From the NCBI GenBank assembly GCA_044347345.1, contig JBIKUX010000003.1:59983-123982 (forward strand): 64,000 nucleotides of DNA. The letters are read 5' to 3'. Of this stretch, positions 20,246-62,951 are shown one piece after another. The notes under the pieces were generated by a model. That model searched no databases and was not told the origin of the DNA. It was given only the letters and a program-made list of their open reading frames with translations. The first letter of the stretch is position 1, and each line of letters starts with the position of its first letter. The stretch comes from Bdellovibrionota bacterium (lineage in GTDB: Bacteria > Bdellovibrionota_C > UBA2361 > JBIKUX01). Both the position numbers and the translations under genes were made by a program.

Positions 20246-21130
20246 CTAATTTGTAATACCAATCATTTTTCGCAGTATACCTAAATCAATAGCGGCTTCA
20301 TCAATAGATCTCATTCGTGGAGTTTCCAAAATAATAGAGCAATGAGATAATTTAGGATGGTTTACTACTTTTTTGAGAGTGTCATAACCAATAAGACCTT
20401 CACCTAAATTTTCATGTCGATCTATGTTGCTCCCCAGTTTGGTTTTACTGTCATTTAAGTGAATAACTTCTATTCTGCTGAGAGAAGTTTCAGCCGCAAA
20501 TGAATCTACAATTTTATCCAGATCGTCGGCGAGGTTATGGCCACTTGCCCACAGATGTTGGGTATCAAGAGCAAAGCCTATACGTGTAGGTCTATCTACC
20601 AATCTATCTATTTGAGCTAATTGAGAGAATTTTGAGCCAACTATTTTACCACTTCCTGCTGAAACCTCGAATAAAAGTTTTGCCTCACCAGAAGCACTAT
20701 CAATAATTCTCCTTACAAGACTTGCTATTCGCTCAAAAGCTATTACCTCATCTGGTTCATCTTTCATACTTCCCAAGTGGAAAATGACGCCTGAGGCTTC
20801 ACATCTGTGTGCAAATTCCAGATCATTAACCAGTGATCGAACGGCAAAGTTTTGCTTACGTTCGTCAGGTGAAGCTAAATTAATCAGATAAATACCGTGA
20901 AAATATAGATGTGAGATCTGAGTAAGTTTTTTGTTATTTAAATATTCTTTTTCAATACCTGATGAATAAGGTTCAATATTCCATCTTTGCGGTGCTGAGG
21001 GATGTACTTGAATTGCGGTGACACCTAAGGCTACTCCACGTTCAAGGGCTAAGCTAAGACCACCAGCACACGAAACATGTCCTCCATATGGGCGAACAAC
21101 CGATGGATGATTAACGATAGGACTTTTCAT
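20246..21130 (-). CDS. nfo: Endonuclease IV (AP endonuclease family 2)
   Basis: HGIYLINLAS, FHLG, DTQH, HLNDSK...DRHENLGEG, ILETP. Confidence 0.93.
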   Translation of the reverse strand: MKSPIVNHPSVVRPYGGHVSCAGGLSLALERGVALGVTAIQVHPSAPQRWNIEPYSSGIEKEYLNNKKLTQISHLYFHGIYLINLASPDERKQNFAVRSLVNDLEFAHRCEASGVIFHLGSMKDEPDEVIAFERIASLVRRIIDSASGEAKLLFEVSAGSGKIVGSKFSQLAQIDRLVDRPTRIGFALDTQHLWASGHNLADDLDKIVDSFAAETSLSRIEVIHLNDSKTKLGSNIDRHENLGEGLIGYDTLKKVVNHPKLSHCSIILETPRMRSIDEAAIDLGILRKMIGITN

Positions 21131-22551
21131 GGTAATTGTTCAAGTATTTCAACTACAGAGTTATAATCAGCGGCGATGGTTTTTGGAGTCTTACTGAGGT
21201 TTATACATTCAGCAAGTGCGCTAGGTAGCGTCACGTGATGGCTTAAAGCTCTCTCGACAATGTCACCGAATTTAGCTGGATGAGCTGTGTGAAGAATTAT
21301 AGTCGAAATACACGGATTGTCGCTAAGTAATTTCTCTGCAGCAAAGAAACCTACTGCTCCATGTGGATCAAGAATGTATCTATGTGAGCGATATACTTTT
21401 CTCATTGTCTCTAAAGTTTCTTCATCAGTTGCTGTGTTACCTAAAAGAAGCGGAGCATTTGAACCAGAGGAAAGAATGTTTTGTAATGCTATAACACGTG
21501 AAAAGTTATTTGGATTACCAACATCCATAGCATTTGATACAGTAGAAATACTAGAAAGTGGGTTAAATTTTCCTGATTCAATAAAGCGAGGCAGTGAGTC
21601 ATTTATATTACAAGCGCCTAAAAAAATATCTACAGGGAGTCCCATAGTGCAAGCAATTAATCCAGCTGTTAAGTTACCCAAATTACCACTGGGCACAATA
21701 AAACATACTCGAGGTACCTCTTCTGAACCGCCATTTCTTATTTGTCTCTGCTTACGAAGGAACTGTGCATATGCCCAAAAAAAGTATACTGCTTGAGGAA
21801 GAAGTCTTCCAAAGTTGATAGAATTTGCGCTGGTAAGAGGAATTTTCTCTCTTAAACCATTATCTGTTAGGCATCTCTTAACTAATGCTTGACAATCGTC
21901 AAAAGTTCCCTCTACTTCGATAGTATGAATATTTTTGGAGAATGATGTAATTTGAGCTTGTTGTATAGCACTGATCTTACCTTTTGGGAAAAAAATTACT
22001 ACACGTGTTCCGGGCACACCAAAGAATCCACTACCGACTGCACCACCTGTATCCCCAGATGTAGCTACAATTACAGTAATAGGTTTAGTGTTTTGACTTG
22101 GATTATACTGAGCAGAATTACCCTCAAAATAGGCTAATAATCGCGCAAGTACTCTTGCGCCAACATCCTTGAAAGCAAGAGTTGGTCCATGAAAGAGCTC
22201 AAGCACAGATACGCGCTCTGATAAGGTGACAAGTGGAATAGGAAAATTGAGAGCGTCCTGTAAAATACCCCGCAATTTTTCTCTGGGAATCTCCGTACCT
22301 ATAAATGGAGCCATTACTTCTTCAGCAATCATACTAATAGATAGGCTCGGAAGAGCACTAAAAAAGTTAGATGATAACTTTGGTATCTGGGTGGGCATGT
22401 AGAGTGCGCCATTGTGCTCCATACCCTGCAAGAGCACATCACGAAAAGAAAGCAAAGAGGATTCTGCAACAAAGCTTATGTCAGAGTGAGCTTCGCACGA
22501 GCGACCTAGTGACAGATTTGAATGACGATTAGAAAGTTGATAAAAGTTCAT
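21127..22551 (-). CDS. thrC: Threonine synthase (long, E. coli-type)
   Basis: LELFHGPTLAFKD, ATSGDTG, SANSINFGRL, PSGNLGN, TAHPAKF. Confidence 0.96.
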   Translation of the reverse strand: MNFYQLSNRHSNLSLGRSCEAHSDISFVAESSLLSFRDVLLQGMEHNGALYMPTQIPKLSSNFFSALPSLSISMIAEEVMAPFIGTEIPREKLRGILQDALNFPIPLVTLSERVSVLELFHGPTLAFKDVGARVLARLLAYFEGNSAQYNPSQNTKPITVIVATSGDTGGAVGSGFFGVPGTRVVIFFPKGKISAIQQAQITSFSKNIHTIEVEGTFDDCQALVKRCLTDNGLREKIPLTSANSINFGRLLPQAVYFFWAYAQFLRKQRQIRNGGSEEVPRVCFIVPSGNLGNLTAGLIACTMGLPVDIFLGACNINDSLPRFIESGKFNPLSSISTVSNAMDVGNPNNFSRVIALQNILSSGSNAPLLLGNTATDEETLETMRKVYRSHRYILDPHGAVGFFAAEKLLSDNPCISTIILHTAHPAKFGDIVERALSHHVTLPSALAECINLSKTPKTIAADYNSVVEILEQLP

Positions 22552-22587
22552 AACTGTTACTGCACAAATTTTTAGGTAAATAAATTC

Positions 22588-23556
22588 TCAGGTAATAAGT
22601 CTTGCTCCAGATGAACTAATTGATGAAATTACGGTCGTAACCTCAATATCAGATTTGTTGTATACATCACTAATTGCTCTAGCAATCTCTTCAGGACAAA
22701 TATTGTGTGGTACAAACGAAAATAGTGAAGGACCTGAGCCTGATATCGTACAGTTTAGAGCTCCTCTATTTATTGCCTCCTTTCTAGCACTATAAAAAAA
22801 AGGTATTAGAGGAGCACGCACTGGCTCTAGTAGTTCGTCTCTCAACGAACATTGCAGCAGTTTTTTATCATTATTGTGAAGAGCTAGTACGAGCGAAGAT
22901 ACAAGTTCAAGTTGTTTTACAACTGTAGCAAGTGGCACAGTCTTAGGGAGTACAGCTCTAGCATCCCGCGTTCTTATTTCAATGTGAGGAGTTATTACTA
23001 CAACTTTAAGATCAGAAGGGATCGGCAGATTATATACTTCCGGCTCACCATCTCTTTCTCTAATCAAAACGATTCCACCATATAGTGATGGTGCTACATT
23101 ATCAGCATGACCACTACCACAGGCTATACGCTCTCCTTCAACGGTAGCTAAAAGCAATTCCTTCCTTGTAAAAGGACACCCTAACAGATGATTTACAGCA
23201 CATGCTCCTGCTACAGCACTAGCAGCACTTGAGCCAAGTCCACTTCCAAGTGGCATAGCCTTTTTTAATGAAAGTGAAATCCCATAATCAGGTAATAGAT
23301 CTCTTTGCCTCAAGAGAGACCAGAGATAATTTGCTGCAACACCTGCGGTATTTTCATGAGGCAAAAGGCTCAATTTGCCGCTATCACCGGTAATATCTGA
23401 GATAGTTATACCGAAATTAGTGTCACTCCATGTAGCAATAACTTCATCACCGGGATGATCAAGCGCAAATCCCATGATATCAAAAGCTGGCCCTATGTTT
23501 GCAACTGTAGCAGGAGCAAATACGTGCGCTCGTCTCAAAAACTTTTCTTTATTCAT
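22588..23556 (-). CDS. thrB: Homoserine kinase
   Basis: APATVANIGPAFD, PLGSGLGSSAAS, HADNVAP, ISGSGPS. Confidence 0.96.
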   Translation of the reverse strand: MNKEKFLRRAHVFAPATVANIGPAFDIMGFALDHPGDEVIATWSDTNFGITISDITGDSGKLSLLPHENTAGVAANYLWSLLRQRDLLPDYGISLSLKKAMPLGSGLGSSAASAVAGACAVNHLLGCPFTRKELLLATVEGERIACGSGHADNVAPSLYGGIVLIRERDGEPEVYNLPIPSDLKVVVITPHIEIRTRDARAVLPKTVPLATVVKQLELVSSLVLALHNNDKKLLQCSLRDELLEPVRAPLIPFFYSARKEAINRGALNCTISGSGPSLFSFVPHNICPEEIARAISDVYNKSDIEVTTVISSISSSGARLIT

Positions 23557-26216
23557 AATGATCTTAGTCCTGAACTGCTCATCTGAGCAATACGTACAAT
23601 ATCGGCAAACACGCCCGCAGCAGTCACTTCAGCACCAGCTCCAGGTCCTTGAACTACCAGAGGCCTTTCTTGGTATCGGTCTGTTGTAAAGGCTATAATG
23701 TTGTCTGAGCCCCGTATGTGTGAAAATGGATGATCTGGATAAAGAACGGTAAGTTTTGTACTAGCGCCTTTGTCTGGAGAAAAAGATGCCATGTAGCAAA
23801 GTCTACCCTCGTTTCGTTTTGCTTCCATAACAATAGCGTGCATTCGTTCATCAGCACGGTGTAATTCCTCCATGAAATGACTTATAGAATTTGAGCTTCT
23901 ACATTCGCTAGGTACTAAACTTTCAATCTCTACATCGGACAATTCTAGAGAGTATCCTGATTCTCGTGCTAGGATAAGAATTTTGCGGGCTACATCCATA
24001 CCACCAAGGTCATCACGAGGATCAGGCTCGGTGTAGCCTTTTCTTTGAGCCTCCCGCACTGCTTTACTAAATTGAACACCTTGCATTAGCTCTGTACATA
24101 AATACCCTAATGTTCCGGAAAGTATTCCCTCAATTCTGAGGATCCGGTCGCCGCTTTTAATTAAATCCTGCAAGGTGCTTATCACAGGTAATCCAGCTCC
24201 AACGGACGTTTCAAATAAAAATGGAACATGACGAGCTTCTGAGATTGTTTTGATAGATTTATATCTAGCTAGTGTTCCTGACTGGGCTCGTTTGTTTGGA
24301 GTGACTATCGCAATATGCTGTGATAGCAGCATACCGTAATAATTTGCAATATCCTCGCTCGATGTACAGTCGACACAGATACTATTTGCTAAGTTTAACC
24401 CACTTAGCTTTTTAATGAATGATTCAAAGTCTAGAGGTTCACCACGCTCCTCTAGGGTAGAAGCCCATATATTAGGATTTATACCGTCAGAATCAATCAG
24501 CATCTCTTTGGATCTCGCTATTCCAACAAGTTTTATCTCAATTCGCCGTTCATCGAGGAGTGAGCGTAAGTGAGACGATATTTGTCTTAATAGAGTGGTG
24601 CCCACTAAACCTGTTCCTACTATGGCTACATGAAGAGTACGCGTAGTTCGCTGAACAAAAAATTCATCATGGGCTACTCTAAGGGCTTTTTCCTCATCTA
24701 CCTTATTTATTACCACTGATATACTGAGCTCCGAGGAACCCTGTGCTATTGCGATACTGTTGATACCGTTTCGTCCTAAAGCAGAAAAAAATGTTCCGGC
24801 AATCCCAGGCCTACGTCGCATTCCTGAGCCAACAATTGATATGATTGATAACGATGACTCAATGATAGGACTCTCTATAAGCTGAGCGTTGATTTCCAGA
24901 TTAAATTCTTGCATTAAGGCCTCTTTTGCCTTTTCGGTATCCGAAGGAAGAATGGCAAAGCAAATAGTTGTCTCAGATGACCCTTGAGTAATAAGAATTA
25001 AATTTATATTTACTCGAGCTAACGCCTCAAAAACCCTGGCTGCTAAACCAGATACGCCTACAAGACCAGTACCTTGTAAGCGAATCATAGTGACATCGTC
25101 TATTGAGGATATTCCGGTTATTGGAAAATGTACCTCTGAACTAACAGGGAGAAACTTTTCACTGACCTCATCAAAATCACCAAAACTCGAGGAACTTATT
25201 AAAGTTCCAGAAGCGTTTAGATTAAAGATATTTTTAACAATAATGGGGATATTTTTTGTAATCACTGGACGTAAGTTAGGAGCATAGATAGTTTTTGCTC
25301 CAAAATGCGAAAACTCGAGGGCTTCAGCGTAGCTTAATCGCGGAAGCGCAAATACTTTATTTACCTTTTTAGGATCTGCCGTAAGAACACCATCAACGTC
25401 AGTCCAAATTTCTAGTATTGACGCATCAAGAGCCGCTGCAATCATAGCTGCTGTTAAATCAGAGCCCCCTTGCTCTAGGGTAATTGTTTTTCCATCAGAA
25501 CCGCTAATACTGGCAATGTTACCTTGAATAAATGGTATTAATCGATACTTGGTTTCGGATGATGATGGGGAAAACTTCTCCGAAAAATCGCAACTCAACA
25601 GAGGTAAAATTTTATCTCTACAACTTGTTAAGGTAGTTTGCTCATTTATAGTAAGATTACTATCGAAAAAAATAAAGGAGCGTGCATCAAGACTTTGGGC
25701 TAATAAATTATTACCAGCCATCGCGTTTGCCAGTGCTTCATTAAAATAAGCAACCATAATTTCGGTAAAAAGAGCTTCTCCTGAACTTTTAAGTAAATCT
25801 AATGACCCGGTGCTAAGCTCCCCGAGAGAGTTGATTGCAAAAAGTTGCTCTCGAATCGTACGAAATGTTGAATAAATATGGGCAAGCGTGCGCGCTAATC
25901 TTATCGGAGAAATAACACTCGATGCGAGTTCGATGACTTTTTTCTCTGTTGCTTCAATAGTGGTAAATGCTACCTCGTTTTTAAAACCAACCGCAGCTTT
26001 GCCGGCTGAAATGAGGTTGGCGGTAACCTCAGAAGGTGCTGAGAAAACTACCACAACTGGATTAATCTTCACCTTGGTTAAGATAATATCACCAGTCGCT
26101 CGAATAGCTTGTGGAGTGCTAATTGATGAGTTGCCAAATTTTAGTACTACAATATTGCTAGTTATGGTCGTTTGATGATTATTTTTATCCTTCCCTCTTA
26201 GCATATCTCCAGACAC
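23553..26216 (-). CDS. thrA: Bifunctional aspartokinase-homoserine dehydrogenase (AK motifs divergent)
   Basis: AK domain (WTDVDGVLTADP), two ACT domains, HSDH domain (GTGLVG, ETSVGAGLP, GYTEPDPRDDL, GPGAGAEVTA). Confidence 0.93.
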   Translation of the reverse strand: MSGDMLRGKDKNNHQTTITSNIVVLKFGNSSISTPQAIRATGDIILTKVKINPVVVVFSAPSEVTANLISAGKAAVGFKNEVAFTTIEATEKKVIELASSVISPIRLARTLAHIYSTFRTIREQLFAINSLGELSTGSLDLLKSSGEALFTEIMVAYFNEALANAMAGNNLLAQSLDARSFIFFDSNLTINEQTTLTSCRDKILPLLSCDFSEKFSPSSSETKYRLIPFIQGNIASISGSDGKTITLEQGGSDLTAAMIAAALDASILEIWTDVDGVLTADPKKVNKVFALPRLSYAEALEFSHFGAKTIYAPNLRPVITKNIPIIVKNIFNLNASGTLISSSSFGDFDEVSEKFLPVSSEVHFPITGISSIDDVTMIRLQGTGLVGVSGLAARVFEALARVNINLILITQGSSETTICFAILPSDTEKAKEALMQEFNLEINAQLIESPIIESSLSIISIVGSGMRRRPGIAGTFFSALGRNGINSIAIAQGSSELSISVVINKVDEEKALRVAHDEFFVQRTTRTLHVAIVGTGLVGTTLLRQISSHLRSLLDERRIEIKLVGIARSKEMLIDSDGINPNIWASTLEERGEPLDFESFIKKLSGLNLANSICVDCTSSEDIANYYGMLLSQHIAIVTPNKRAQSGTLARYKSIKTISEARHVPFLFETSVGAGLPVISTLQDLIKSGDRILRIEGILSGTLGYLCTELMQGVQFSKAVREAQRKGYTEPDPRDDLGGMDVARKILILARESGYSLELSDVEIESLVPSECRSSNSISHFMEELHRADERMHAIVMEAKRNEGRLCYMASFSPDKGASTKLTVLYPDHPFSHIRGSDNIIAFTTDRYQERPLVVQGPGAGAEVTAAGVFADIVRIAQMSSSGLRSL

Positions 26217-52275: not shown

Positions 52276-52306
52276 AAATTCAGTGGGAGAAAAGTCTTTG
52301 TAAAGG

Positions 52307-53137: not shown

Positions 53138-53220
53138 CCTTATCTAATTCTCACAAAAACTTTACCATATATAATTATGGTAATTATGGTGGAGACGAAA
53201 CCACAGTTAGTTAGATAATT

Positions 53221-54510
53221 TTAACAGTAAAGACCTTTAATCAAAAAACTTAAGCGTTTTATACCTTCAACGAGCTCCTCATTAGAAGCTGTAAGGCTTA
53301 TGCGAAAGCACTCTGACGCGTGTTGCCAATGATTATTTAGACCAGGGAAAAATGCTGAACCAGGTACTATGAGTACCCCATACTCTTTGCCCTTTTCATA
53401 TAATTCCCTATCACTTATTGGTAAATCTTTACACCATATCCATGCAAATAAACCACCATCACCTTGGTGAAGATACCAAGGGAAAAGATTTTGGAAGTAC
53501 GAATCGAGTAGTTCGTCGATGAGTGCTATTTTTCGAGCATAAAACGGCCGAACTACGTTATGAGCCAGTTCGGCCAAAAGTCCACTTTTAATGGCCAGAG
53601 CTGCAATAGCTTGGCCAAATCTTGAAGAATGTATACATGCGTTGGTTTGAAATGCTTCCAATACTTCAATTGTTTGCGGGTCGCCAATAGCTACTCCCAC
53701 CCTTTCTCCAGGCAGCCCTACTTTTGATAGACTCATGCAATGAACAACTCCATTACCGCAATTAATTGACATAGGGACGTTGTTTAATGCCGGATAAGGA
53801 GGCGCGTAGGCGGAGTCAATAAAAACGGGGATGTGATATTCTCGGCAAGCAGAAACGATAATGTCTACCTCCCTATCAGTAAGAATATTTCCGCAAGGAT
53901 TGTTAGGCCGAGAAAATACAACTCCTCCTACTTTCGGCCCAATTCCTGTTTCTTCGTTGAGCACTCGCTCTTTTGATAACATGTACTTAAAACGGCGAGA
54001 GCTTTCAAAGATAGCGAGATCAGGTCTAATACTGTAGACACACTCAGGATTCAGGTGTACTCCGCCGTACCCTGTGTAATCAGGGCACAAGGGGAGAAGG
54101 AATCTTTTGTTTTCACCATTGGTAAAAGGACCAGAAAAGGCATTCGCGGCAAAAAAGAATACAGATTGGCTTCCTGGAGTTACTAAGCAGTTACGTTCAG
54201 TTATATTGAGATTGTACCTCTTGTTTAGATCTTCAACTACTGCTTCGATGAAGGGCTCGTAACCTTGACTGGCCCCGTACTTGCCCACAATAGAGTCGAA
54301 ATCTTGCTTATCAAGTAATTCTCGAGTGCAATCGCGCCAAGCTAAAGCAACTTCAGGAATAATCGCCGGATTTCCAGGACTTAGGTTGATAAAAGATTTT
54401 TTAGAGTTTGCAAGGGTCGAAATTATATCTTTCATAATTGCGCGCACACCAGTGCGTTTCGCCATTATTCGACCAGTTTTACTCACATTTTCAAAATCAT
54501 CGAGCGACAT
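53221..54510 (-). CDS. avtA: Valine--pyruvate transaminase
   Basis: TGVRAIMKDI, SRPNNP.GN, IDSAY, SLSKVGLPGERVG, C.RIS; directly after leuB. Confidence 0.88.
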   Translation of the reverse strand: MSLDDFENVSKTGRIMAKRTGVRAIMKDIISTLANSKKSFINLSPGNPAIIPEVALAWRDCTRELLDKQDFDSIVGKYGASQGYEPFIEAVVEDLNKRYNLNITERNCLVTPGSQSVFFFAANAFSGPFTNGENKRFLLPLCPDYTGYGGVHLNPECVYSIRPDLAIFESSRRFKYMLSKERVLNEETGIGPKVGGVVFSRPNNPCGNILTDREVDIIVSACREYHIPVFIDSAYAPPYPALNNVPMSINCGNGVVHCMSLSKVGLPGERVGVAIGDPQTIEVLEAFQTNACIHSSRFGQAIAALAIKSGLLAELAHNVVRPFYARKIALIDELLDSYFQNLFPWYLHQGDGGLFAWIWCKDLPISDRELYEKGKEYGVLIVPGSAFFPGLNNHWQHASECFRISLTASNEELVEGIKRLSFLIKGLYC

Positions 54511-54531
54511 TGGTGGCTAGCTCCTAAAAAA

Positions 54532-55608
54532 CTAGAGAAAAGAGATTATCTCATCAGTCACTTTTTTTGTCGTACAACCTTCACTACGGCGGTTGTGTGG
54601 TAATAAATCTGGAGTAACGTTATGAGATTGAATGGTTTTAGCCACAGCGCTCTCTATCATCTCAGCTTCATGATGTAGCTGAAAAGAGTGGCGTAAAAGT
54701 AGTGCAGCAGATAAAATTTGAGCTATAGGATTAGCTATTCCCTGTCCGACGATATCAGGAGCTGACCCTCCAGATGGTTCGTACATACCAAACCCATCTT
54801 TGTTGAGGGAAGCTGAAGGTGTTACCCCGAGTGAGCCAGGCAAAACAGCACCGATGTCAGATAAGATATCACCAAACATATTAGTTGTAACAATTACATC
54901 AAACGCTGAAGGTTCTCTCACAATTTGCATGGCGCAGTTGTCAACTAACATTTCCTCTAGCGTTACATCTGGGTAATTTCTAGCTGTTTCCCGAACAACG
55001 TCACGCCATAATTGAGAGGTTGCCAGTACGTTTGCTTTGTGAACTGAGCAGACTTTTTTCCGCCGTTTAAGCGCGGCATTGAAGGCAACTTCAGCGATTG
55101 ATTTAATCTGGTCTTCAGTATATTCAGCAACATCTGAGGCTTTACGGTAACCAATATCTCCACTACGGTGGTGGTCGCCGAAATAACAATCACCTAAAAG
55201 TTCCCTAACAATTAGTAGATCAACTCCCTTTTCGAGAACGCTTTCCTTTAGGGGAGATAATGGAAAAAGAGCAGGCCAAACTGTTATCGGACGAAGATTA
55301 GCATGAAATTTGAATGCTTTTCTCAAAGAAAGAAGTGAATTAGATTCACAGCCCTGCCATTTTGGCAGATGTTGTTCGCTTAGAGGGCCACCAACACTAC
55401 CAAATAAAATAGCATCACTATTTTTACACAGGGTGAGTGTTTCTTCTGGAAAGTGTTTGCCGCATTTTTCGTAAGCAGCACCACCTATTAAACCCGCTTC
55501 AAAGCACCAATCTTTTTCTGGTAGCACTGTTTTTAATACTCTCAATGCTTCGCTCATGACTTCAGGTCCAATGCCGTCACCAGCTAAAACTGCAATTTTT
55601 TTTACCAT
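54532..55608 (-). CDS. leuB: 3-isopropylmalate dehydrogenase
   Basis: GDGIGPEV, ANLRP, VRELLG, KANVL, NMFGDILSD, YEPSGGSAPDI. Confidence 0.97.
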   Translation of the reverse strand: MVKKIAVLAGDGIGPEVMSEALRVLKTVLPEKDWCFEAGLIGGAAYEKCGKHFPEETLTLCKNSDAILFGSVGGPLSEQHLPKWQGCESNSLLSLRKAFKFHANLRPITVWPALFPLSPLKESVLEKGVDLLIVRELLGDCYFGDHHRSGDIGYRKASDVAEYTEDQIKSIAEVAFNAALKRRKKVCSVHKANVLATSQLWRDVVRETARNYPDVTLEEMLVDNCAMQIVREPSAFDVIVTTNMFGDILSDIGAVLPGSLGVTPSASLNKDGFGMYEPSGGSAPDIVGQGIANPIAQILSAALLLRHSFQLHHEAEMIESAVAKTIQSHNVTPDLLPHNRRSEGCTTKKVTDEIISFL

Positions 55609-55798
55609 AACTTCTGCTTAAATATTCTTCTTTTCTGGACTTTACCGTAAATATTATTGAATTAAACCCACTTTAGGGATTATTCTTCCATAACCCAACC
55701 AACGTGGAAAAGTTTTCTTTTCATCGTCAGTTGTTGCGTTGATAGTTAAGTCTTTACACTCATCAGCCTAGGCTAATCTTAAGTGCCAGAATAAAAAT

Positions 55799-57565
55799 AT
55801 GAACAGTACTAATCAAACAAAAACTGTTACTGCAAAAACTGTTACTGGAGCAGCTGCACTAATGCAGGCGCTTTTGTGTGAGGGAGTGGATACCATTTTT
55901 GGTTATCCAGGTGGTGCGATAATGCCAGTTTATGATGCTTTGTATGATTACAAGGATCGTCTCAGACATATTCTCGTGAGACATGAACAGGGTGCAGCCC
56001 ATGCCGCGGAAGGATACGCACGAATTACTGGAAAGCCTGGAGTATGTATGGCTACTTCTGGTCCAGGAGCCACCAATCTTGTAACAGGAATTGCTGATGC
56101 AATGATGGATTCAGTTCCTCTGGTCTGCATTACTGGCCAAGTTCATCGTAATGCGCTTGGTACAGATGCATTTCAGGAGACTGACGTTATTGGCATAACT
56201 ATCCCGATAACTAAATGGAATTTTCAGATAACCGAAGCAAGTGAGATACCGGTAATAATTGCTAAAGCCTTTGCAATAGCAAACAGTGGCCGCCCAGGGC
56301 CTGTAGTTGTAGATATAACCAAGAATGCTCAGATAGACTCTTTTGAATGGGATGAGCAGCTGGAATCACAAGTTAAAGAAGTTCGCAATCAGACTTTACA
56401 AGGCCAATCGTTGCCTCAGCTACAAGAAACCGAATTACGCCGAGCTGCGAATATAATTAACGGTGCCAAACGTCCACTAATGTTAGCTGGGCACGGTGTA
56501 TTAATATCGAGAGCTTGTTCGGCAGTAAGAGCCTTAGCTGAAAAAGCTGATATACCAGTTGCGCTTACTCTTCATGGATTGTCTGCTTTTCCGACTGGTC
56601 ATAAGAACTATGTTGGTATGCTTGGAATGCATGGAAATTATGGGCCTAATATTCTTACTAATAAGGCTGATGTGATTATTGCTGTAGGTATGCGGTTTGA
56701 TGACCGCGTAACTGGTGACACTAAGTCCTACGCCAGAAGCGCGCGTATAATTCATATAGAGGTCGATCCAGCCGAGATAGGCAAGGTAGTTCCGACGGAA
56801 GTGGGACTACCAGGTGATGCAAGGGATACTCTCGAGCGACTTTTGCCCTTTGTTGAAGCGAGAAATCATACTGAGTGGTTAGGTGAATTTACGAAATGTG
56901 CAGTCCAAGAGGAGGAGCAGGTAATAGTTAAGGCTACTAAGCCAAAGCAGGGACCACTTAAAATGAGCGAGGTAGTTTACGAGCTCTCTGTTATCACTAG
57001 AGGTCAAGCTGTGGTAGTAGCGGATGTAGGTCAGCATCAAATGATGGCAGCTCGTTATTACTCGTTCGCTCATCATGATAGTTGGGTGACGTCAGGAGGT
57101 CTTGGAACCATGGGATTTGCTCTTCCTGCCGCCATGGGGGTGCAAGTTGGTCTCAGTAAGAAAGGAATTAAGGACATAAGCAGTAGGCCAGTTGTCATCA
57201 TTGCTGGTGACGGCGGATTTCAGATGAACTCGCAGGAGCTTATGACAATAGCTCAAGAAAGGTTGCCTGTTAAAATGATCATCTTGAATAATAACTTTCT
57301 TGGGATGGTTAGGCAGTGGCAAGAGCTATTCTTTGATAACCGTTACTCCTCAGTAGATATGCAGAATCCAGATTTTGTAAAGCTTGGTGAAGCTTACGGC
57401 ATTACCTCCAGTCGCGTTTCTGAACGAGCTGATTTAGGTATTCAAATACAGCGCATGCTTGATCATAAGGGACCATTCTTGCTGGAAGTGTGTGTAGAAA
57501 CTGAGCAAAACGTGTTTCCGATGGTGCCAGCGGGAGCTAGTGTTTCAGATATTCGGCTTGAATAA
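55799..57565 (+). CDS. ilvB: Acetolactate synthase large subunit
   Basis: FGYPGGA, RHEQGA, TSGPGATN, GMLGMHG, RFDDRVTG, GDGGF TPP motif, MVRQWQ. Confidence 0.97.
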   Translation: MNSTNQTKTVTAKTVTGAAALMQALLCEGVDTIFGYPGGAIMPVYDALYDYKDRLRHILVRHEQGAAHAAEGYARITGKPGVCMATSGPGATNLVTGIADAMMDSVPLVCITGQVHRNALGTDAFQETDVIGITIPITKWNFQITEASEIPVIIAKAFAIANSGRPGPVVVDITKNAQIDSFEWDEQLESQVKEVRNQTLQGQSLPQLQETELRRAANIINGAKRPLMLAGHGVLISRACSAVRALAEKADIPVALTLHGLSAFPTGHKNYVGMLGMHGNYGPNILTNKADVIIAVGMRFDDRVTGDTKSYARSARIIHIEVDPAEIGKVVPTEVGLPGDARDTLERLLPFVEARNHTEWLGEFTKCAVQEEEQVIVKATKPKQGPLKMSEVVYELSVITRGQAVVVADVGQHQMMAARYYSFAHHDSWVTSGGLGTMGFALPAAMGVQVGLSKKGIKDISSRPVVIIAGDGGFQMNSQELMTIAQERLPVKMIILNNNFLGMVRQWQELFFDNRYSSVDMQNPDFVKLGEAYGITSSRVSERADLGIQIQRMLDHKGPFLLEVCVETEQNVFPMVPAGASVSDIRLE

Positions 57566-57592
57566 AGATTAAGATGAGGAGTCAAAACGAAT

Positions 57593-58162
57593 ATGAAACA
57601 GATATTTACTATCACTGCTGATACTGAGAACCATGCTGGTGTTCTTCATAGACTGACTTCAGTTTTTACCAGAAGAAAAGTTAATATTGAAAGCTTATGT
57701 GTCTCTGAGACTCATGTAGACGGCATCTCTCGATTTACGATAAGCGTGAAATTAGAGGAAGTACAGGTTCAGAAGATCATAGCTCAGATAGCTCGCATAA
57801 TTGAAGTTAAATATGTAGCTTATTATACAGATAATCAACTTTTATTTAAGGAATTAGCTTTTTTGAAAATCGCGGTATCTAGTATTGAAGAACGCCGTAG
57901 TGTAGAAGATGTAGCTAGGCGTTATAATTCAAGCGTAGCTTTGGTAGATGATCGAACTATAGTGCTTGAAAAAATAGGTTCTGAGGCTGATATCTCCTCG
58001 CTTTATCATCTGTTATCCGAATACCGCATACTTGAGTTTGTGAGATCTGGCCGTATTGCAGTAACTCGCTTAAGTGATGTGACTCGCTTTAGTGAGGATT
58101 CCGATGATCGCTCCAGCAAGGCGCGAATGGTTATTCTCTCTACTCCGCCAGTAGTTTCTTAG
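57593..58162 (+). CDS. ilvN: Acetolactate synthase small regulatory subunit
   Basis: ENHAGVLHR...F.RR.VNIESL ACT domain, EFVRSGRIA. Confidence 0.94.
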   Translation: MKQIFTITADTENHAGVLHRLTSVFTRRKVNIESLCVSETHVDGISRFTISVKLEEVQVQKIIAQIARIIEVKYVAYYTDNQLLFKELAFLKIAVSSIEERRSVEDVARRYNSSVALVDDRTIVLEKIGSEADISSLYHLLSEYRILEFVRSGRIAVTRLSDVTRFSEDSDDRSSKARMVILSTPPVVS

Positions 58163-58268
58163 AGTCAACATACTTGTGCTATGGGTCATGGTGATGGAGT
58201 AACTCTCAGCAAGTAGTATAAAATTTCCACTAAAAATTAGCTCAGTTTAAACGTGTGTAGGAGCCCTA

Positions 58269-60107
58269 ATGTATCGGATAAGAAACTTTTTAACTAAGGA
58301 AGAAGTTCATCCTTCCAATCATGTTTATTGTGATGGCGATACTCCTTGGGAAGTTTCCATGGATCTTAATGAAATTCGAACTAAGGTAAACTCAGAATTT
58401 TTTCGTCGTTCTCCGGCGGTAGTATCAAAATATTTTCCTTTTTTGCCAGTAAAAGACTACTCTTCTTTTGTTACATTAAATGAGGGTGGCACGCCTCTAC
58501 TGCGCAGTAAGGTAATTGGACCAAATCTTGGGATCGATCTTTATTTTAAACAAGAGACACAAAATCCAACAGGATCTTTTAAAGACCGAGGATCAGCTGT
58601 TGAGCTAACCGTGGCAAAAGAATTAGGTGTTAGTGCTATTTCTGTAGCCTCCACTGGTAATATGGCGGCCTCTTGTTCGTGCTACGCTGCGGCAGCTGGT
58701 ATGCCATGTTTTGTTTTTGTTCCTGAAGACACTCCTGCTTCAAAGTTGTCTCAATCTATCGCGTTTGGTGGAAAAATTGTTCAAGTGAAAGGTAGTTACG
58801 ATGATGCTGCTAGACTTGCCGAGCAAGTGGCAGTTGAACTTGGATTTTATCTAGCCGGTGATTATGCTTTTAGAGTTGAAGGGCAAAAGACAGCGGCATT
58901 TGAGTTAGTTGATCAGCTTTTTTTTGATCCGCCTGAGCTGATTTTTATACCGATGGGATGTGGCACTAATATAACAGGTTATCAAAAAGGTTTTGATGAG
59001 TATAAAGCACTTGGTTTTATTGACCGGCTTCCTAGACTAATTGGAACTCAAGCAGCTGGAGCTAAGAGTATAGTGGATGCGTATGACAAGAGGGCTCGGG
59101 ATGTAACTCCACTTAAAACATTGAATACTATCGCTTCAGCAATTTCCGTTAAAAAGCCCCTCGATGGAACAAAAGCGCTTGATGCGATTTATCGGTCTGA
59201 AGGAATGGCGCTTGCTGTGACTGACGAGGAAATACTAAGAGCACAGTACGAACTATCTCGAGGAGAGGGAATTTATGTTGAAGCTTCTTGTGCTACAACG
59301 ATTGCTGCACTCAAGAAGTTAGTCGATATTGAAGGGGCACCACGTGGAAGGGTTGTATGTGTGCTCACCGGTGACGGCCTAAAGGATCCGTCCGCAATAC
59401 TCAAAATTGCCCTGAAGCCGCCAACCATTTATCCGGAGGTGCGAGAGTTCCAACGGTTGTATGAAGGCGGCCGTTTTGCGCGAAGTGCGGTTGCTTTTGT
59501 GAAAAGAGAAGAAATTTTATTCTCTTCTTTACCCTCAACTGATGCCATTCAGGAAGTAATTACGAGGTATCTTCCGACTATAAACACTCGAACAACTGAT
59601 GACAGAGAGTCTCAAAAGAACTGTGATAAGCTTTCTTTTGAAGAGTTAACTTCTTTTCAACGAGCGATAGGAAGATTTCTTAAAAAAGGGAAGCATGTTA
59701 GTTTTGCGGATTTGCAAGATATACTGCAAGGAGTGTTTGCTTCCTCTGAAGAAACAATACCGGCGCTAGTTGTTGAAGACTTTGAAGTTCGTACCTCACT
59801 AGATGCTCCTCCGTCAGCTCGTGTTATCGTTCGTATTGGAAACCATATTTTTGAAGCTAGTGATACTGGTGTAGGACCAGTCGACGCAGTAATAAACGCT
59901 CTTCGTAAAGCTTGTGGAAACGCAGTCTCTTTTTCTTTAGATAACTTTAATGTTGCTATTCGCAGTCAAGGTACCGATGCTGTTGTCGTGGTTGAGATGA
60001 AACTTTCACGAGAGGGTAATTTCTCCTCAGCGGTAGGTACTTCCCCCGATGTAATTCAAGCTTCTATAGAAGCATTTCAAGCTGCATATAACGGTCTACC
60101 AAAATAG
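58269..60107 (+). CDS. Threonine synthase-family PLP enzyme (short type) fused to a LeuA/CimA-type allosteric domain
   Basis: N-terminal EGGTPL, NPTGSFKDRG, ASTGN, EGQKT, TGDGLKD; C-terminal GVGPVDAVINAL, GTDA, SPDVIQASIEAF..AYN. Confidence 0.9.
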   Translation: MYRIRNFLTKEEVHPSNHVYCDGDTPWEVSMDLNEIRTKVNSEFFRRSPAVVSKYFPFLPVKDYSSFVTLNEGGTPLLRSKVIGPNLGIDLYFKQETQNPTGSFKDRGSAVELTVAKELGVSAISVASTGNMAASCSCYAAAAGMPCFVFVPEDTPASKLSQSIAFGGKIVQVKGSYDDAARLAEQVAVELGFYLAGDYAFRVEGQKTAAFELVDQLFFDPPELIFIPMGCGTNITGYQKGFDEYKALGFIDRLPRLIGTQAAGAKSIVDAYDKRARDVTPLKTLNTIASAISVKKPLDGTKALDAIYRSEGMALAVTDEEILRAQYELSRGEGIYVEASCATTIAALKKLVDIEGAPRGRVVCVLTGDGLKDPSAILKIALKPPTIYPEVREFQRLYEGGRFARSAVAFVKREEILFSSLPSTDAIQEVITRYLPTINTRTTDDRESQKNCDKLSFEELTSFQRAIGRFLKKGKHVSFADLQDILQGVFASSEETIPALVVEDFEVRTSLDAPPSARVIVRIGNHIFEASDTGVGPVDAVINALRKACGNAVSFSLDNFNVAIRSQGTDAVVVVEMKLSREGNFSSAVGTSPDVIQASIEAFQAAYNGLPK

Positions 60108-60160
60108 GTAACCCCGTAACTAGGTAATTAGAGGTGATAGGACTGTTGGCTACTAGGGTA

Positions 60161-60211
60161 GAGTCGGGTGGATAACTGGATATTTTTGGCCATCCATCCG
60201 GCTTTTTTTTT
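60161..60211 (+). terminator. Probable intrinsic terminator after the ilv operon
   Basis: GTCGGGTGGAT pairs with ATCCATCCGGC (with G:U), followed by a T run. Confidence 0.6.
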
Positions 60212-60297
60212 CTTTTACTCGGTCGTTTAACACACTATCCAAATAGAGTATCTGGTTAAATTATTGAAAAATAGGCTTTAATAAGCGCAGCTAGAAG

Positions 60298-60313
60298 TGG
60301 CGTATCTTTTGCT
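60298..60313 (+). promoter_or_regulatory. Sigma-54 promoter of fliK-flgD-flgE
   Basis: TGGCGTATCTTTTGCT, GG-N10-GC, about 70 bp upstream of fliK. Confidence 0.78.
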
Positions 60314-60380
60314 AATTTTTAGTGTTCGAGAAGGAGTTGTACCTTGATATTAACTTAGCTTCTTTAAGAGACTTTCCGCT

Positions 60381-62240
60381 ATGGAATCTATTGAATCAGG
60401 CTTATCACTTTTTAATCGTAAAATAATTACCACTGATGAAAGAGATTCGATAACTACATCTAATCCGTATTCCACTACAGATACCACATCTGTTTCTGAG
60501 CAATTTTCATCACTTCTGGATAAATTTGAAGCTAAGCCTAAAACAAAATCTCTGCGAAATAGCTCAGGTGGGGCACTACGCCAGTCTATTCAAAATGAAG
60601 TAGTAGAAGTGGCTTCCGCTGTAGAACAAAAGATGCCGAAGTATTTGAGGTCATTCGAAGAATCTCATTCTACAAAGAAAGTTGATTCTTCCTCGCGAAA
60701 TCTGAGTAAACCTAGTCTTAACGAGTCATCTTCGTCAGAGTTACAAGCGATTAAAACTACCAAAGAATCTGTTGATACAGAGGAAGAAGTTATAACTGAG
60801 GCTTCACGAGAAACAGAAATTTTTGAAAATGAGGTTTCTAATGATGAAGGTATCGATGAGAAGAGCTTGGAGAAAAGCGAATGCGAGTTCGTAAAAATTG
60901 AAGAAATATTATTAACACCGGAAAAAATATTTGATCAGGAACAAATTCTGGCTGAGGACGTCAATACGGGAGAAGAAACTCAAATTATAGATAACCACTC
61001 TTTTGGGTATTCTAACTGCACAGAACAGCAAGCAAAGCTATCAGATAACTTAAAACAGCAGGCGCAAAATTCTATAACGGAAGATCTAACTAGCAACCAA
61101 GGAAAATCTCTTAACAATGAATATAACATTATTGATAAAGATATTACTGTTCCTAACGATACCGCTATCCCTGTTAAGGAATCATTGTTTGAAGGCAGTG
61201 AGGTACAAAGTGATGAGGAAACCATTAAGGTTTCCGATTCAGAGCAAATTTTCCCCCAAGACTATGGCTCGGTAAAAGAACTAGTTGAGCCAACTAATAA
61301 ATTAAATTCAGATATTGTATTTAAAGAACAATCAGAGAGTGATAACTCTGATATACTTTTACAACCTCACAAAGAATCACAAATTGATACACTTTCTAAA
61401 ACGGAAACAGGAGAAATTATCCGTAGTGACAGAGATAAAAGTGAATTTGAAGAAGCCAATATTATAAGTGAAAATAAAGCTGTTAACTCTAACTCCACTG
61501 GTGAGCAAATATCTCCTCCTTCAGTAAAATCCGAAATCCATCCAGCAATTTTATCACTTTCAAATAGTGTAATGGGTAGAGCCACTCCGGCTTCGGCTGA
61601 AGAATCTTTATCCAAAAGTTTGCCTCAAGTGGCCTCTCAGTCTCAGCTGGCGCTAAGAGCATCAGGCAGTAGCAGAGGCAGCACTAATAATGCAACCTCT
61701 GCTACTGCCTTGCCGCTTCAACAACAGGGAGAAATGCATCGTAGCTCTGAAGAGAAAAAAGTTCCTAGATTACCCCCGTCCTTACATTCTCGACTTTTAG
61801 AGCAGGTAAAAAAAATGCTTCATGATGTTGAGCAGTTAACAAAAAATGGTAGTAGTCTTTCATTTAGATTAGATCCACCTCAGCTCGGTAATGTTCACGT
61901 TTATATGCGAGTGCACGGTGGCACACTTCATGCTCGTATTTCTCCCGATAACAGTGAGGTGGTTAATTTCTTGAGAGATAAGGGGGGAGAGATTCATGAA
62001 TCTTTAAGAGAAGTTGGGCTGTCATTTGAAGAGATAAAAGTATCATTTGGGGGAACGAACATATCACACGGAGGTGATAATCAATTTCAAGGAAGTAACC
62101 AACAGGAAATGGGGGATAGTTTTTATAATCAGACGAATATTTTATCTCATTTTGGTGACGTGGCTCCATCACAATCAGCAGTTAAGGTTCAGCATTTAAA
62201 CTCTGTTAGAAACGAAGTCAAAGATTATTGGGTAGCATAA
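60381..62240 (+). CDS. fliK: Flagellar hook-length control protein FliK
   Basis: Long S/E-rich disordered region plus C-terminal RLDPPQLGNVHV domain; precedes flgD. Confidence 0.9.
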   Translation: MESIESGLSLFNRKIITTDERDSITTSNPYSTTDTTSVSEQFSSLLDKFEAKPKTKSLRNSSGGALRQSIQNEVVEVASAVEQKMPKYLRSFEESHSTKKVDSSSRNLSKPSLNESSSSELQAIKTTKESVDTEEEVITEASRETEIFENEVSNDEGIDEKSLEKSECEFVKIEEILLTPEKIFDQEQILAEDVNTGEETQIIDNHSFGYSNCTEQQAKLSDNLKQQAQNSITEDLTSNQGKSLNNEYNIIDKDITVPNDTAIPVKESLFEGSEVQSDEETIKVSDSEQIFPQDYGSVKELVEPTNKLNSDIVFKEQSESDNSDILLQPHKESQIDTLSKTETGEIIRSDRDKSEFEEANIISENKAVNSNSTGEQISPPSVKSEIHPAILSLSNSVMGRATPASAEESLSKSLPQVASQSQLALRASGSSRGSTNNATSATALPLQQQGEMHRSSEEKKVPRLPPSLHSRLLEQVKKMLHDVEQLTKNGSSLSFRLDPPQLGNVHVYMRVHGGTLHARISPDNSEVVNFLRDKGGEIHESLREVGLSFEEIKVSFGGTNISHGGDNQFQGSNQQEMGDSFYNQTNILSHFGDVAPSQSAVKVQHLNSVRNEVKDYWVA

Positions 62241-62258: not shown

Positions 62259-62951
62259 ATGACTGAATCGACTAAAGACGTTCTTTCAAATATCACCTCA
62301 CTTGGAGCTGCATCAGCTAGCAACCGCAGTAAAAAATCAAAAGATCGTGGGCAAATTGGTCAAGATGAATTTCTGACCTTATTAGTACAACAACTAAAGG
62401 CGCAAGATCCGCTCAATCCCATGAACAACGAAGAATTTGCTGTCAACTTGGCACAATTCTCACAGCTTGAGCAACTCATTTCAATAAATGAAAAGTTCGA
62501 TGCTGCCTCTAATTCTTCTGTTTCAAGTTTGGCTGGTCTTCTCGGGCAAGAAGTGACGCTTAGCCGAGAAACAGTTTCATTGAGTGAAGATTCTGCTTCT
62601 GCGCTTAGAGTTAATGCTCCAAGCGGTGCTCAATCATTAACAATTAGTCTCAAAAATAAAGAAGGTGGGGTAGTTGATAGTATCGAAGTGCCGGTGACTC
62701 AATCAGGAGTTCAGCGGATTGATTTGAAAGGCTTAACACGTCTGGAAGGAGAATTTGGGATTGCTGTTTCTGCCAACACCGGAAGCGGCGCTCAAGTGCC
62801 CATTCAAGCATCTGTAGTGGGCACTGTAACCGGCTTTATTCCGGGATCAGAGCCAACTTTAATCTTAGATGGTGGTGAAGAGGTTCAACTAAAAGATATA
62901 AAACGCGTAGATGTACCCATAGATACAAATTCAAATTCGCAACAAAAATAA
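62259..62951 (+). CDS. flgD: Flagellar hook capping protein FlgD
   Basis: FLTLLVQQLKAQDPLNPM...LAQFSQLEQ. Confidence 0.96.
   Translation: MTESTKDVLSNITSLGAASASNRSKKSKDRGQIGQDEFLTLLVQQLKAQDPLNPMNNEEFAVNLAQFSQLEQLISINEKFDAASNSSVSSLAGLLGQEVTLSRETVSLSEDSASALRVNAPSGAQSLTISLKNKEGGVVDSIEVPVTQSGVQRIDLKGLTRLEGEFGIAVSANTGSGAQVPIQASVVGTVTGFIPGSEPTLILDGGEEVQLKDIKRVDVPIDTNSNSQQK

Follow-up and report, generated by a model that had tools for sequence, protein, structure and literature searches.

A threonine-synthase-like core fused to a LeuA/CimA-type sensor domain: a candidate replacement of IlvA in Bdellovibrionota and other phyla

The last gene of an ilvBN unit in a 64,000-nucleotide stretch of Bdellovibrionota DNA (the window; assembly GCA_044347345.1, contig JBIKUX010000003.1, positions 59,983 to 123,982) encodes a protein in which a catalytic core of the threonine synthase (ThrC) family is joined to a regulatory domain of the type found in LeuA and CimA, the isopropylmalate and citramalate synthases. 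With a probability of roughly 0.6 this fusion protein is a ThrC-derived threonine deaminase analogue that is regulated by a branched-chain amino acid, supplies 2-ketobutyrate and thus is a non-orthologous replacement of IlvA. From its architecture, residue replacements, operon context, co-occurrence and folds, which are laid out below, we infer its substrate, product and effector and the direction of regulation.

The translation of the window contains the gene (58269-60107, plus strand) as one uninterrupted open reading frame (ORF) of 612 aa. Within this single frame the Pfam scan placed PALP at residues 68-368 (E 1.3e-70) and LeuA_dimer (PF08502) at residues 478-608 (E 1.6e-24; 86.7 bits, gathering cut-off 24.9), which bears out a previous sequence-only reading that had proposed a ThrC-family core fused to a LeuA/CimA domain. 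All motifs named in that reading were located in the translation, namely NPTGSFKDRG (K105), TGDGLKD (residues 367-373, nt ~59367), GVGPVDA (nt 59868), GTDA, and SPDVIQAS (592-599). Its proposed subdomain II-like helix, FLKKGKHVSFADL, was found at residues 469-481, and the LeuA alignment agrees. The HMGL-like domain PF00682 and the ACT-like regulatory domain of IlvA (PF00585) were both absent from the fusion protein; the N-terminal partner of the sensor is PALP. An AlphaFold2 model of the whole protein had a mean predicted local distance difference test score (pLDDT) of 87.8 and a predicted template modelling score (pTM) of 0.83. The start codon is backed by homologue N-termini matching MYxLxDFxTK. 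Furthermore, the match to NF006050 spans query positions 17-377 and model positions 23-388, with the N-terminal extension aligning to the N-terminal part of the model. The parts of the gene, all on the plus strand, are as follows.

58269..60107, plus strand: whole gene, ThrC-like core and LeuA_dimer; stop codon at 60105-60107
58259..58271, plus strand: Shine-Dalgarno sequence AGGAG (58259-58263), 5-nt spacer and ATG (58269-58271), read directly from the sequence
58269..58409, plus strand: N-terminal extension, residues 1-47, kept across the family (PWEV) in the alignment of fused homologues
58410..59453, plus strand: ThrC-homologous catalytic core, residues 48-395, from phmmer against the PDB and Foldseek
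58581..58583, plus strand: K105, the pyridoxal 5'-phosphate (PLP) Schiff-base lysine in SFKDRG, invariant in 47 fused homologues and aligned with the SFKDRG lysine of solved ThrCs
58662..58664, plus strand: M132 in STGNM, at the position of T88 of the Thermus thermophilus ThrC (1uim alignment)
58857..58874, plus strand: G197-D198-Y199...R202 (YLAGDYAFR), at the positions of N154-S155...R160 (1uim alignment)
58956..58970, plus strand: G230-C231-G232-T233-N234 (GCGTN), the cofactor-phosphate loop, with C231 at the position of N188 (1uim alignment)
59454..59636, plus strand: linker, residues 396-456, with a low-confidence stretch at 439-452 in the pLDDT profile of the model
59637..59741, plus strand: two helices (residues 457-491) homologous to LeuA subdomain II, from LeuA alignments; model helices at 457-472 and 479-491
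59700..60092, plus strand: LeuA_dimer regulatory domain, two beta-beta-beta-alpha units, from PF08502, the PDB profile match and Foldseek
59868..59888, plus strand: GVGPVDA (534-540), conserved loop at the predicted dimer interface; G534, G536 and D539 are invariant in 47 fused homologues
60042..60050, plus strand: S592-P593-D594, another conserved motif located at the predicted interface; in 47 fused homologues P593 and D594 do not vary

The catalytic half has the fold of a threonine synthase, with several conserved residues replaced. In the phmmer search of the PDB its best matches were short-type threonine synthases (2d1f, E 2.4e-73; 1uim, E 3.4e-63; also 2ZSJ and 6CGQ), and Foldseek with the model of the fusion protein gave a target-normalised TM-score of ~0.9 to the ThrC structures 2d1f, 1v7c and 6cgq. 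The 1UIM alignment, which yields the Thermus numbering S84-T85-G86-N87-T88, N154-S155, R160 and G187-N188-A189-G190-N191, places M132 at T88, G197-D198 at N154-S155 and C231 at N188, while R202 keeps R160. The T, NS and N of the Thermus enzyme are kept in all five solved ThrCs that were aligned, a plant enzyme of 26% identity included. Conversely, the 47 fused homologues, which come from several phyla, are uniform at M132, G197, D198, Y199, R202, G230, G232, T233 and N234; position 231 varies, being C, F, Y, M or N. A table of 161 ThrC-family sequences showed the signature STGNM / xGDY / GxGT in the fused proteins and in unfused relatives of 350-440 aa, and STGNT / LNSN / GNAGN as the canonical ThrC signature. 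We take T88, N154, S155, R160 and N188 to be the phosphate ligands of the T. thermophilus enzyme, the numbering having been checked on the 1uim alignment. These residues reportedly hold the substrate phosphate and that of the retained product, and thereby direct water to C-beta. The fusion protein also missed all six ThrC subfamily equivalogs, among them NF006050 (281 bits, cut-off 303), NF004170 (215, 421), NF004996 (185, 266), NF005035 (176, 301) and NF006205 (150, 358), as well as the catalytic models of IlvA (TIGR01127, 101 bits against 378.75; TIGR01124, 70 bits against 411.3). Judged from the sequence, the catalytic half is ThrC-like and unlikely to be a plain threonine synthase. Cysteate synthase was rejected as another identity (TIGR03844, 58 bits, cut-off 325); this model was also not among the matches of the archaeal unfused relatives at the 1e-50 threshold.

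The C-terminal half resembles the sensors of LeuA and CimA. Its last 159 aa align to positions 351-500 of the 516 positions of bacterial LeuA, comprising subdomain II and the regulatory domain; its profile scores were 64.9 bits for bacterial LeuA and 19.7 bits for the citramalate synthase model, and it is 28% identical to residues 354-507 of the LeuA encoded in the host genome itself. A direct sequence search of the PDB with the C-terminal 182 aa gave no match. A profile built from 14 C-termini matched the regulatory domain of the Leptospira citramalate synthase (3F6G/3F6H, E 4.6e-8) and, weakly, M. tuberculosis LeuA. Foldseek with a separate model of this half (pLDDT 81.6) ranked the isoleucine-bound 3F6G/3F6H first (3f6g_A, E 8.1e-9, target-normalised TM-score 0.79), followed by leucine-bound LeuA. 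Structure and sequence thus point to different effectors, the isoleucine-bound CimA domain being closest in fold and LeuA closest by sequence profile, and either isoleucine or leucine may be sensed. Homodimer prediction with a 180-aa C-terminal construct scored 0.55, the best control reaching 0.01; because like dimers have already been solved (3f6g, 1sr9), this result may show likeness rather than binding. Of 30 proteins with solved homodimer structures, 20 attained this score mark, as did 1 of 23 whose structures are single chains. Between runs at least 90% of contacts agreed, the partner pLDDT was 73 or more, and the predicted interface takes in the invariant GxGPxD and SPD motifs (construct residues 102-107, corresponding to 534-539, and 160-165). 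This type of domain suggests that the enzyme is subject to feedback by a branched-chain amino acid.

Fusions of this kind are widespread. A word-indexed search returned at least 120 cluster representatives at 50-74% identity, with both Pfam domains in all among the matches listed, and an exhaustive search of representatives added about 14 full-length ones at 38-50% identity. Representatives with a source name are labelled 'threonine synthase'; most carry no such name. Cluster members include metagenome-assembled genomes (MAGs) of NC10 and Parcubacteria/Jacksonbacteria and a TARA ocean metagenome sequence. In a search with one genome per species, 80 loci were found, 6 of which apparently are Bdellovibrionota genomes (4 of them with fused forms) already contained in the phylum survey described below. 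Fused forms made up 50 of the 80 and come from isolates, complete chromosomes (3 of the fused loci) and MAGs of Bdellovibrionota, Gammaproteobacteria, NC10/Methylomirabilis, Chlamydiae, many lineages of the candidate phyla radiation (CPR) and DPANN archaea, a Coxiella MAG being among them. The gammaproteobacterial carriers include the cultured Cysteiniphilum litorale and Facilibium subflavum and two Francisella isolates; the Balneolaceae fusion is more distant, at 33% identity. An assembly chimera absent in relatives, a possibility raised by the sequence-only reading, is excluded by the recurrence of the same fusion in isolates and complete chromosomes of many phyla.

A FastTree tree was built from 71 catalytic domains. 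Of its 20 rows labelled as non-signature, 17 make up one side of a branch with support 95; the remaining three (P0147, P0151, P0154) do carry the signature in the sequence table, which the regular expression had missed. Fused and unfused forms are intermixed, and well-supported branches force at least 4 changes between them. Hence, the sensor domain has been gained or lost repeatedly. Two further groups of sequences were noted in this context. Archaeal unfused proteins of 350-400 aa carry STGNM / GDY / GNGTL (L092-L103, L106-L109, L112-L114, L117-L118), and in Methanosarcinaceae, Methanoperedens and Thermococcus unfused signature proteins are accompanied by two or three ThrC-family paralogues of higher score. 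An NC10 chromosome (G132:C1:5037276-5038208) and a Woesearchaeota genome (G136:C30:10397-11302) each have, in addition to the fusion, another ThrC-like ORF of ~600-620 aa; these ORFs reach 150 and 217 bits on TIGR00260, respectively, and could be further fused paralogues.

In the window, the fusion gene directly follows ilvB and ilvN, and a complete thr operon lies elsewhere.

55799..57565, plus strand: ilvB, acetolactate synthase large subunit, first gene of the unit (TIGR00118, 694.6 bits, cut-off 538)
57593..58162, plus strand: ilvN, acetolactate synthase small subunit (TIGR00119, 97.7 bits, cut-off 56.9)
21127..26216, minus strand: canonical thrA-thrB-thrC operon (thrC 21127-22551, thrB 22588-23556, thrA 23553-26216)

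The assignments in the thr operon are supported by TIGR00260 for thrC (262.4 bits), NF002288 for thrB (326.5 bits) and NF006959 for thrA (870 bits), in line with the earlier remark that a canonical thrC is situated there. That remark had also noted that the window lacks ilvA and leuA, which was found to be so; leuA sits on another contig of the same genome. The position of the fusion gene in the ilv operon is a slot often held by ilvA.

The neighbourhoods of the 80 loci, searched by tblastn with reference proteins, extend this association beyond the phylum. Among the 50 fused loci, an adjacent ilv gene on the same strand (within 400 bp) was found in 26 and an ilv gene anywhere in the locus in 28; 8 contained a leu gene, and IlvA was found in none. 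An ilv gene was missing from 26 of the 30 unfused or partial loci. The tie to isoleucine synthesis that the sequence-only reading proposed is borne out. The gene for RidA is adjacent and on the same strand in seven fused loci (L070, L071, L079, L086, L090, L104, L111; L104 belongs to the unpublished genome G146) and present anywhere in nine. RidA is reported to quench the enamine/imine produced by serine and threonine dehydratases (PMC4960622). Its repeated adjacency thus argues for enamine release and against threonine formation. Fusion and canonical ThrC occur together, with PF00585 missing, in Cysteiniphilum, Facilibium, a complete gammaproteobacterial chromosome and a complete NC10 chromosome.

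A survey of 124 species genomes of Bdellovibrionota provided the co-occurrence pattern. Close homologues were present in 24 of these, as 18 complete fusions, 3 unfused forms (402-413 aa; G016, G017, G018) and 3 fragmentary ones. None of the 24 carriers has PF00585, which is strong only in G041, G042 and G069, all lacking the fusion. The gene ilvC exceeded its cut-off in 20 carriers, and 22 have a separate canonical ThrC of ~435-460 aa. The order ilvB-ilvN-(ilvC)-fusion gene was seen in 11 of 16 annotated loci, followed by ilvD in G114, G048 and G018 and by ilvE in G048; in the other five (G013, G014, G016, G017, G009) the gene lies outside an ilv order. Fourteen fusion genomes of the phylum encode just one LeuA-family synthase and thus show no obvious paralogue that could be a citramalate synthase.

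The host genome itself (G000; 2.53 Mb, 95.8% complete) contains ilvB, ilvN, ilvC, ilvD, an ilvE-like gene and leuA, leuB, leuC and leuD. A search for ilvA, which the sequence-only reading had suggested, returned no match to IlvA/PF00585 anywhere in this genome. RidA is encoded, at a site not adjacent to the fusion gene.

Two observations from the survey concern other genes of these pathways. Weak PF00585 matches (24-33 bits, one repeat only) occur in ORFs of 500-626 aa in eighteen genomes of one genus (e.g. G085:C20:22596-22781); several of the eighteen lack ilvC, and the ORFs may be divergent or catabolic threonine dehydratases. Directly 3' of a ThrC-like gene, and followed by leuD and leuB, lies a ~1005-aa ORF with HMGL-like, HCS_D2 and aconitase/LeuC domains and no LeuA_dimer (L028:4982-7996, minus strand, in G010; L043:5252-7137; L049:10015-13026). 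It resembles a sensorless LeuA/CimA-like enzyme fused to LeuC.

Carriers lacking homoserine dehydrogenase bear on the substrate. In G013 and G014 (96% and 95% complete) the fused gene retains the same catalytic motifs, while homoserine dehydrogenase, ilvC, an HMGL-like synthase and any other ThrC were not found, nor was thrB over the cut-off. Lacking homoserine dehydrogenase, these two have no evident route to O-phosphohomoserine. A further 15 small genomes (CPR, DPANN and others) of unreported completeness were examined; the fusion is the sole ThrC-family match in six of them, and five of these six, the unpublished G146 among them, lack homoserine dehydrogenase. In three of these five (L063, L065, L077) ilv genes share the locus with the fusion, adjacent to it in two. 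The pattern fits threonine, imported or otherwise available, as substrate and speaks against both readings based on O-phosphohomoserine, a phospho-lyase and a second threonine synthase, which are weighed below. Threonine is therefore the more likely substrate.

The fused genes of G013 and G014 (L023:7998-9839, L024:8045-9847) are also of interest for their decayed LeuA_dimer half (41 and 36 bits, with GTDA and SPD changed). The lack of ilvC, homoserine dehydrogenase and LeuA-like genes in these two members of one genus suggests a shift to a catabolic, unregulated role.

On this basis we propose the following mechanism. A short-type threonine synthase core, remodelled in the pocket that holds the substrate phosphate in real threonine synthases, would bind L-threonine and eliminate its beta-hydroxyl via a PLP-aminocrotonate intermediate as in ThrC. 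The enamine would be released and would hydrolyse to 2-ketobutyrate and ammonia, aided by RidA in some organisms, and the 2-ketobutyrate would be converted to isoleucine via ilvBN, ilvC, ilvD and a transaminase. The LeuA/CimA-type domain with its subdomain II helices would form a dimeric sensor, in which a branched-chain amino acid bound at the interface throttles the core. By pathway logic, isoleucine would be the likeliest effector. The ThrC of Microcystis has been reported to deaminate threonine to alpha-ketobutyrate in vitro (PMC12172450), which places threonine deamination within reach of the ThrC fold.

Several findings weigh against a threonine deaminase analogue. Structural alignments over ~350 residues give the core 37-41% identity to real threonine synthases, and the protein exceeds the TIGR00260 cut-off of 167.1 bits with 229.4 bits, compared to about 336 bits reached by canonical ThrCs. 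For the phosphate-ligand role of T88, N154, S155, R160 and N188, the check covered the match of their numbers to conserved motif positions in the 1uim alignment. About 20 genomes of the phylum are ilvC-positive with neither the fusion nor PF00585; thus, other 2-ketobutyrate routes exist in Bdellovibrionota. In 15 of the 50 fused loci, including 7 from NC10/Methylomirabilota and 4 of the Balneolaceae type, ilv, leu and RidA genes are all missing nearby, and one Balneolaceae chromosome has IlvA together with the 33%-identical fusion. Homoserine dehydrogenase or thrA adjoins the gene in G018, L082, L089 and L053. Absences in the 15 small genomes are subject to the completeness of these genomes.

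Two genes of the host genome belong on the same side. The first encodes an unregulated Ser/Thr-dehydratase-like PALP protein of 310 aa (G000:C59:55035-55967; L039:11036-11965), whose best NCBIfam score was 189 bits against a cut-off of 331 and which is located after ribBA-ribH and before a metal ATP-binding cassette (ABC) transporter. It is a possible source of 2-ketobutyrate in G000. As a general source in fusion genomes this short dehydratase is unsupported, because its orthologues (at least 46% identity) were found in 10 other genomes of the phylum, six of them lacking ilvC over the cut-off, and none of the 10 carries the fusion. The second encodes a 373-aa protein similar to LeuA, CimA and homocitrate synthase and devoid of LeuA_dimer (G000:C49:84364-85485; L040:6368-7486). 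It scored under all curated cut-offs and adjoins genes for a short-chain dehydrogenase/reductase (SDR) and an AMP-binding enzyme, an unrelated neighbourhood. Owing to these two genes the pathway-hole argument is weaker in G000 than in its relatives, and our reading leans on the family-wide pattern.

Three other functions were weighed against this evidence. The protein might be an O-phosphohomoserine phospho-lyase that no longer performs the retained-phosphate step, so that 2-ketobutyrate, phosphate and ammonia are set free directly without passing through free threonine, all under branched-chain feedback. A model for this reaction is mammalian THNSL2, a ThrC homologue that converts O-phosphohomoserine to 2-ketobutyrate and is not known to carry a LeuA-type domain. 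The catalytic lysine, the carboxylate loop STGN and R202 (R160 in Thermus) are all kept, and ThrC chemistry already runs through an aminocrotonate intermediate; loss of phosphate is said to shift the ThrC product to ketobutyrate. G000 makes O-phosphohomoserine via thrA and thrB, RidA adjacency would fit equally well, and the four loci with an adjoining thrA or hom gene named above would find an explanation. Nevertheless, we regard a phospho-lyase as improbable. Of the five presumed phosphate ligands four are substituted, in one case by an invariant aspartate that would be expected to repel phosphate, and G013, G014 and five of the six small genomes with the fusion as sole ThrC-family member have no evident route to the substrate. 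Slightly more doubtful still is the threonine-independent branch it would create, leading from O-phosphohomoserine straight to 2-ketobutyrate after loss of the pocket and gated by the LeuA-type sensor. If a phospho-lyase were at work, it would represent a new committed step of isoleucine synthesis, not a copy of that of IlvA.

An unlikely explanation, too, is a PLP enzyme with another substrate or reaction, such as a serine or allo-threonine dehydratase, a beta-replacement enzyme or a racemase, and with a looser tie to the ilv genes. It would account for the STGNM / GDY / GxGT signature in unfused paralogues of archaea and others that lack an ilv context (26 of 30 loci), for the copies in Methanosarcinaceae, Methanoperedens and Thermococcus, which are extra to canonical ThrCs, and for the NC10 and Balneolaceae fused loci devoid of ilv neighbours. 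Against it stand the half of the fused loci that lie within ilv operons, in the usual IlvA slot, and a sensor otherwise known only from the entry enzymes of leucine and isoleucine synthesis.

The least probable alternative is a genuine second threonine synthase, regulated by isoleucine or leucine and feeding isoleucine synthesis, with 2-ketobutyrate coming from the short dehydratase or a citramalate route. It is favoured by the TIGR00260 score, by best structural and sequence matches that are all threonine synthases, by the fusion being the sole ThrC-family match in G013, G014 and six small genomes, and by the dehydratase-like and LeuA-like genes of G000 as possible 2-ketobutyrate sources; but residues invariant in ThrCs from bacteria to plants are replaced, all subfamily models are missed (for example NF006050, 281 bits against a cut-off of 303), 22 of 24 phylum carriers have a canonical ThrC, most genomes with the fusion as sole ThrC lack homoserine dehydrogenase, RidA adjoins 7 of 50 fused loci, and most carriers have neither the short dehydratase nor a second LeuA-like gene. 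The sequence-only reading had left open a dedicated threonine synthase and an enzyme making 2-ketobutyrate, from O-phosphohomoserine or from threonine, in place of IlvA; our data favour the latter and disfavour the former.

Upstream of the ilvBN unit lie further genes of branched-chain amino acid metabolism, which are divergent to it.

54532-55608, minus strand: leuB (TIGR00169, 422 bits)
53221-54510, minus strand: avtA-like valine-pyruvate transaminase gene (NF006967, 573 bits)

A search of 52000-61000 against Rfam gave 0 matches at E <= 1, hence no leader RNA, T-box or riboswitch near the unit. Promoter-like and terminator-like sites in 55400-60600 did not exceed the shuffled expectation (3 against 10.9 and 3 against 3.9, respectively), and the terminator scan gave no terminator-like site between ilvN and the fusion gene. 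Downstream of the fusion gene lie the flagellar genes fliK, flgD and flgE. The first of these is a 619-aa ORF (60381-62240, plus strand) with a Flg_hook (FliK) domain at residues 485-559 and no NCBIfam match; it precedes flgD (62259-62951) and flgE (from 63047), which marks it as a divergent hook-length control protein.

If the fusion is indeed a threonine deaminase analogue, it would join IlvA and citramalate synthase as a third, unrecognised solution for the first committed step towards isoleucine, built from a remodelled threonine synthase and a transplanted LeuA/CimA sensor. The apparent gap in the pathway would be closed in Bdellovibrionota, NC10, Chlamydiae, some Gammaproteobacteria (Francisellaceae and relatives), many CPR bacteria and DPANN archaea. 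The reading would also correct a systematic mis-annotation as 'threonine synthase', by which metabolic reconstructions are distorted and, with them, predictions of auxotrophy in CPR and DPANN. Finally, it would be the first LeuA_dimer regulating an enzyme that does not perform a Claisen condensation, and hence a natural swap of an allosteric module.

Literature searches for a ThrC and LeuA_dimer architecture or a ThrC-family substitute of IlvA returned no description, in agreement with the earlier statement that no such enzyme was known. Fold and sensor are each known; their combination is absent from the literature searched. With the short-type (class I) ThrCs (2D1F of M. tuberculosis, 1UIM/1V7C of T. 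thermophilus, 6CGQ of B. subtilis, 2ZSJ of A. aeolicus) the fusion shares the fold, the SFKDRG lysine, the STGN loop and the RxEGQKT arginine. It differs in having M, G, D and C for T88, N154, S155 and N188, in ~215 extra C-terminal residues with a LeuA-type domain, in its location in an ilv rather than a thr operon, and in the co-presence of a canonical ThrC. The Microcystis aeruginosa ThrC is likewise a ThrC-family protein and is reported to form alpha-ketobutyrate from threonine, with sigmoidal kinetics (PMC12172450); in contrast to the fusion it is unfused, described as primarily a threonine synthase, and encoded in an organism that has IlvA.

IlvA (EC 4.3.1.19; E. coli 1TDJ) is similar in combining a fold-type II PLP domain with a C-terminal amino-acid sensor, in its ilv-operon position and in the occasional RidA partner, and probably also in reaction and regulation. 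It belongs to another branch of the fold family (TIGR01127, 101 bits for the fusion against 379), and its sensor is the ACT-like Thr_dehydrat_C instead of LeuA_dimer. CimA (L. interrogans 3F6G/3F6H, isoleucine-bound) and LeuA (M. tuberculosis 1SR9/3FIG, leucine-bound) have in common with the fusion the doubled beta-beta-beta-alpha fold, the GxGP loop and preceding subdomain II-like helices; the homodimer prediction for the fusion puts this loop at the interface. In these two enzymes the sensor is attached to an HMGL-like TIM-barrel synthase, whereas in the fusion it is carried by a PLP enzyme.

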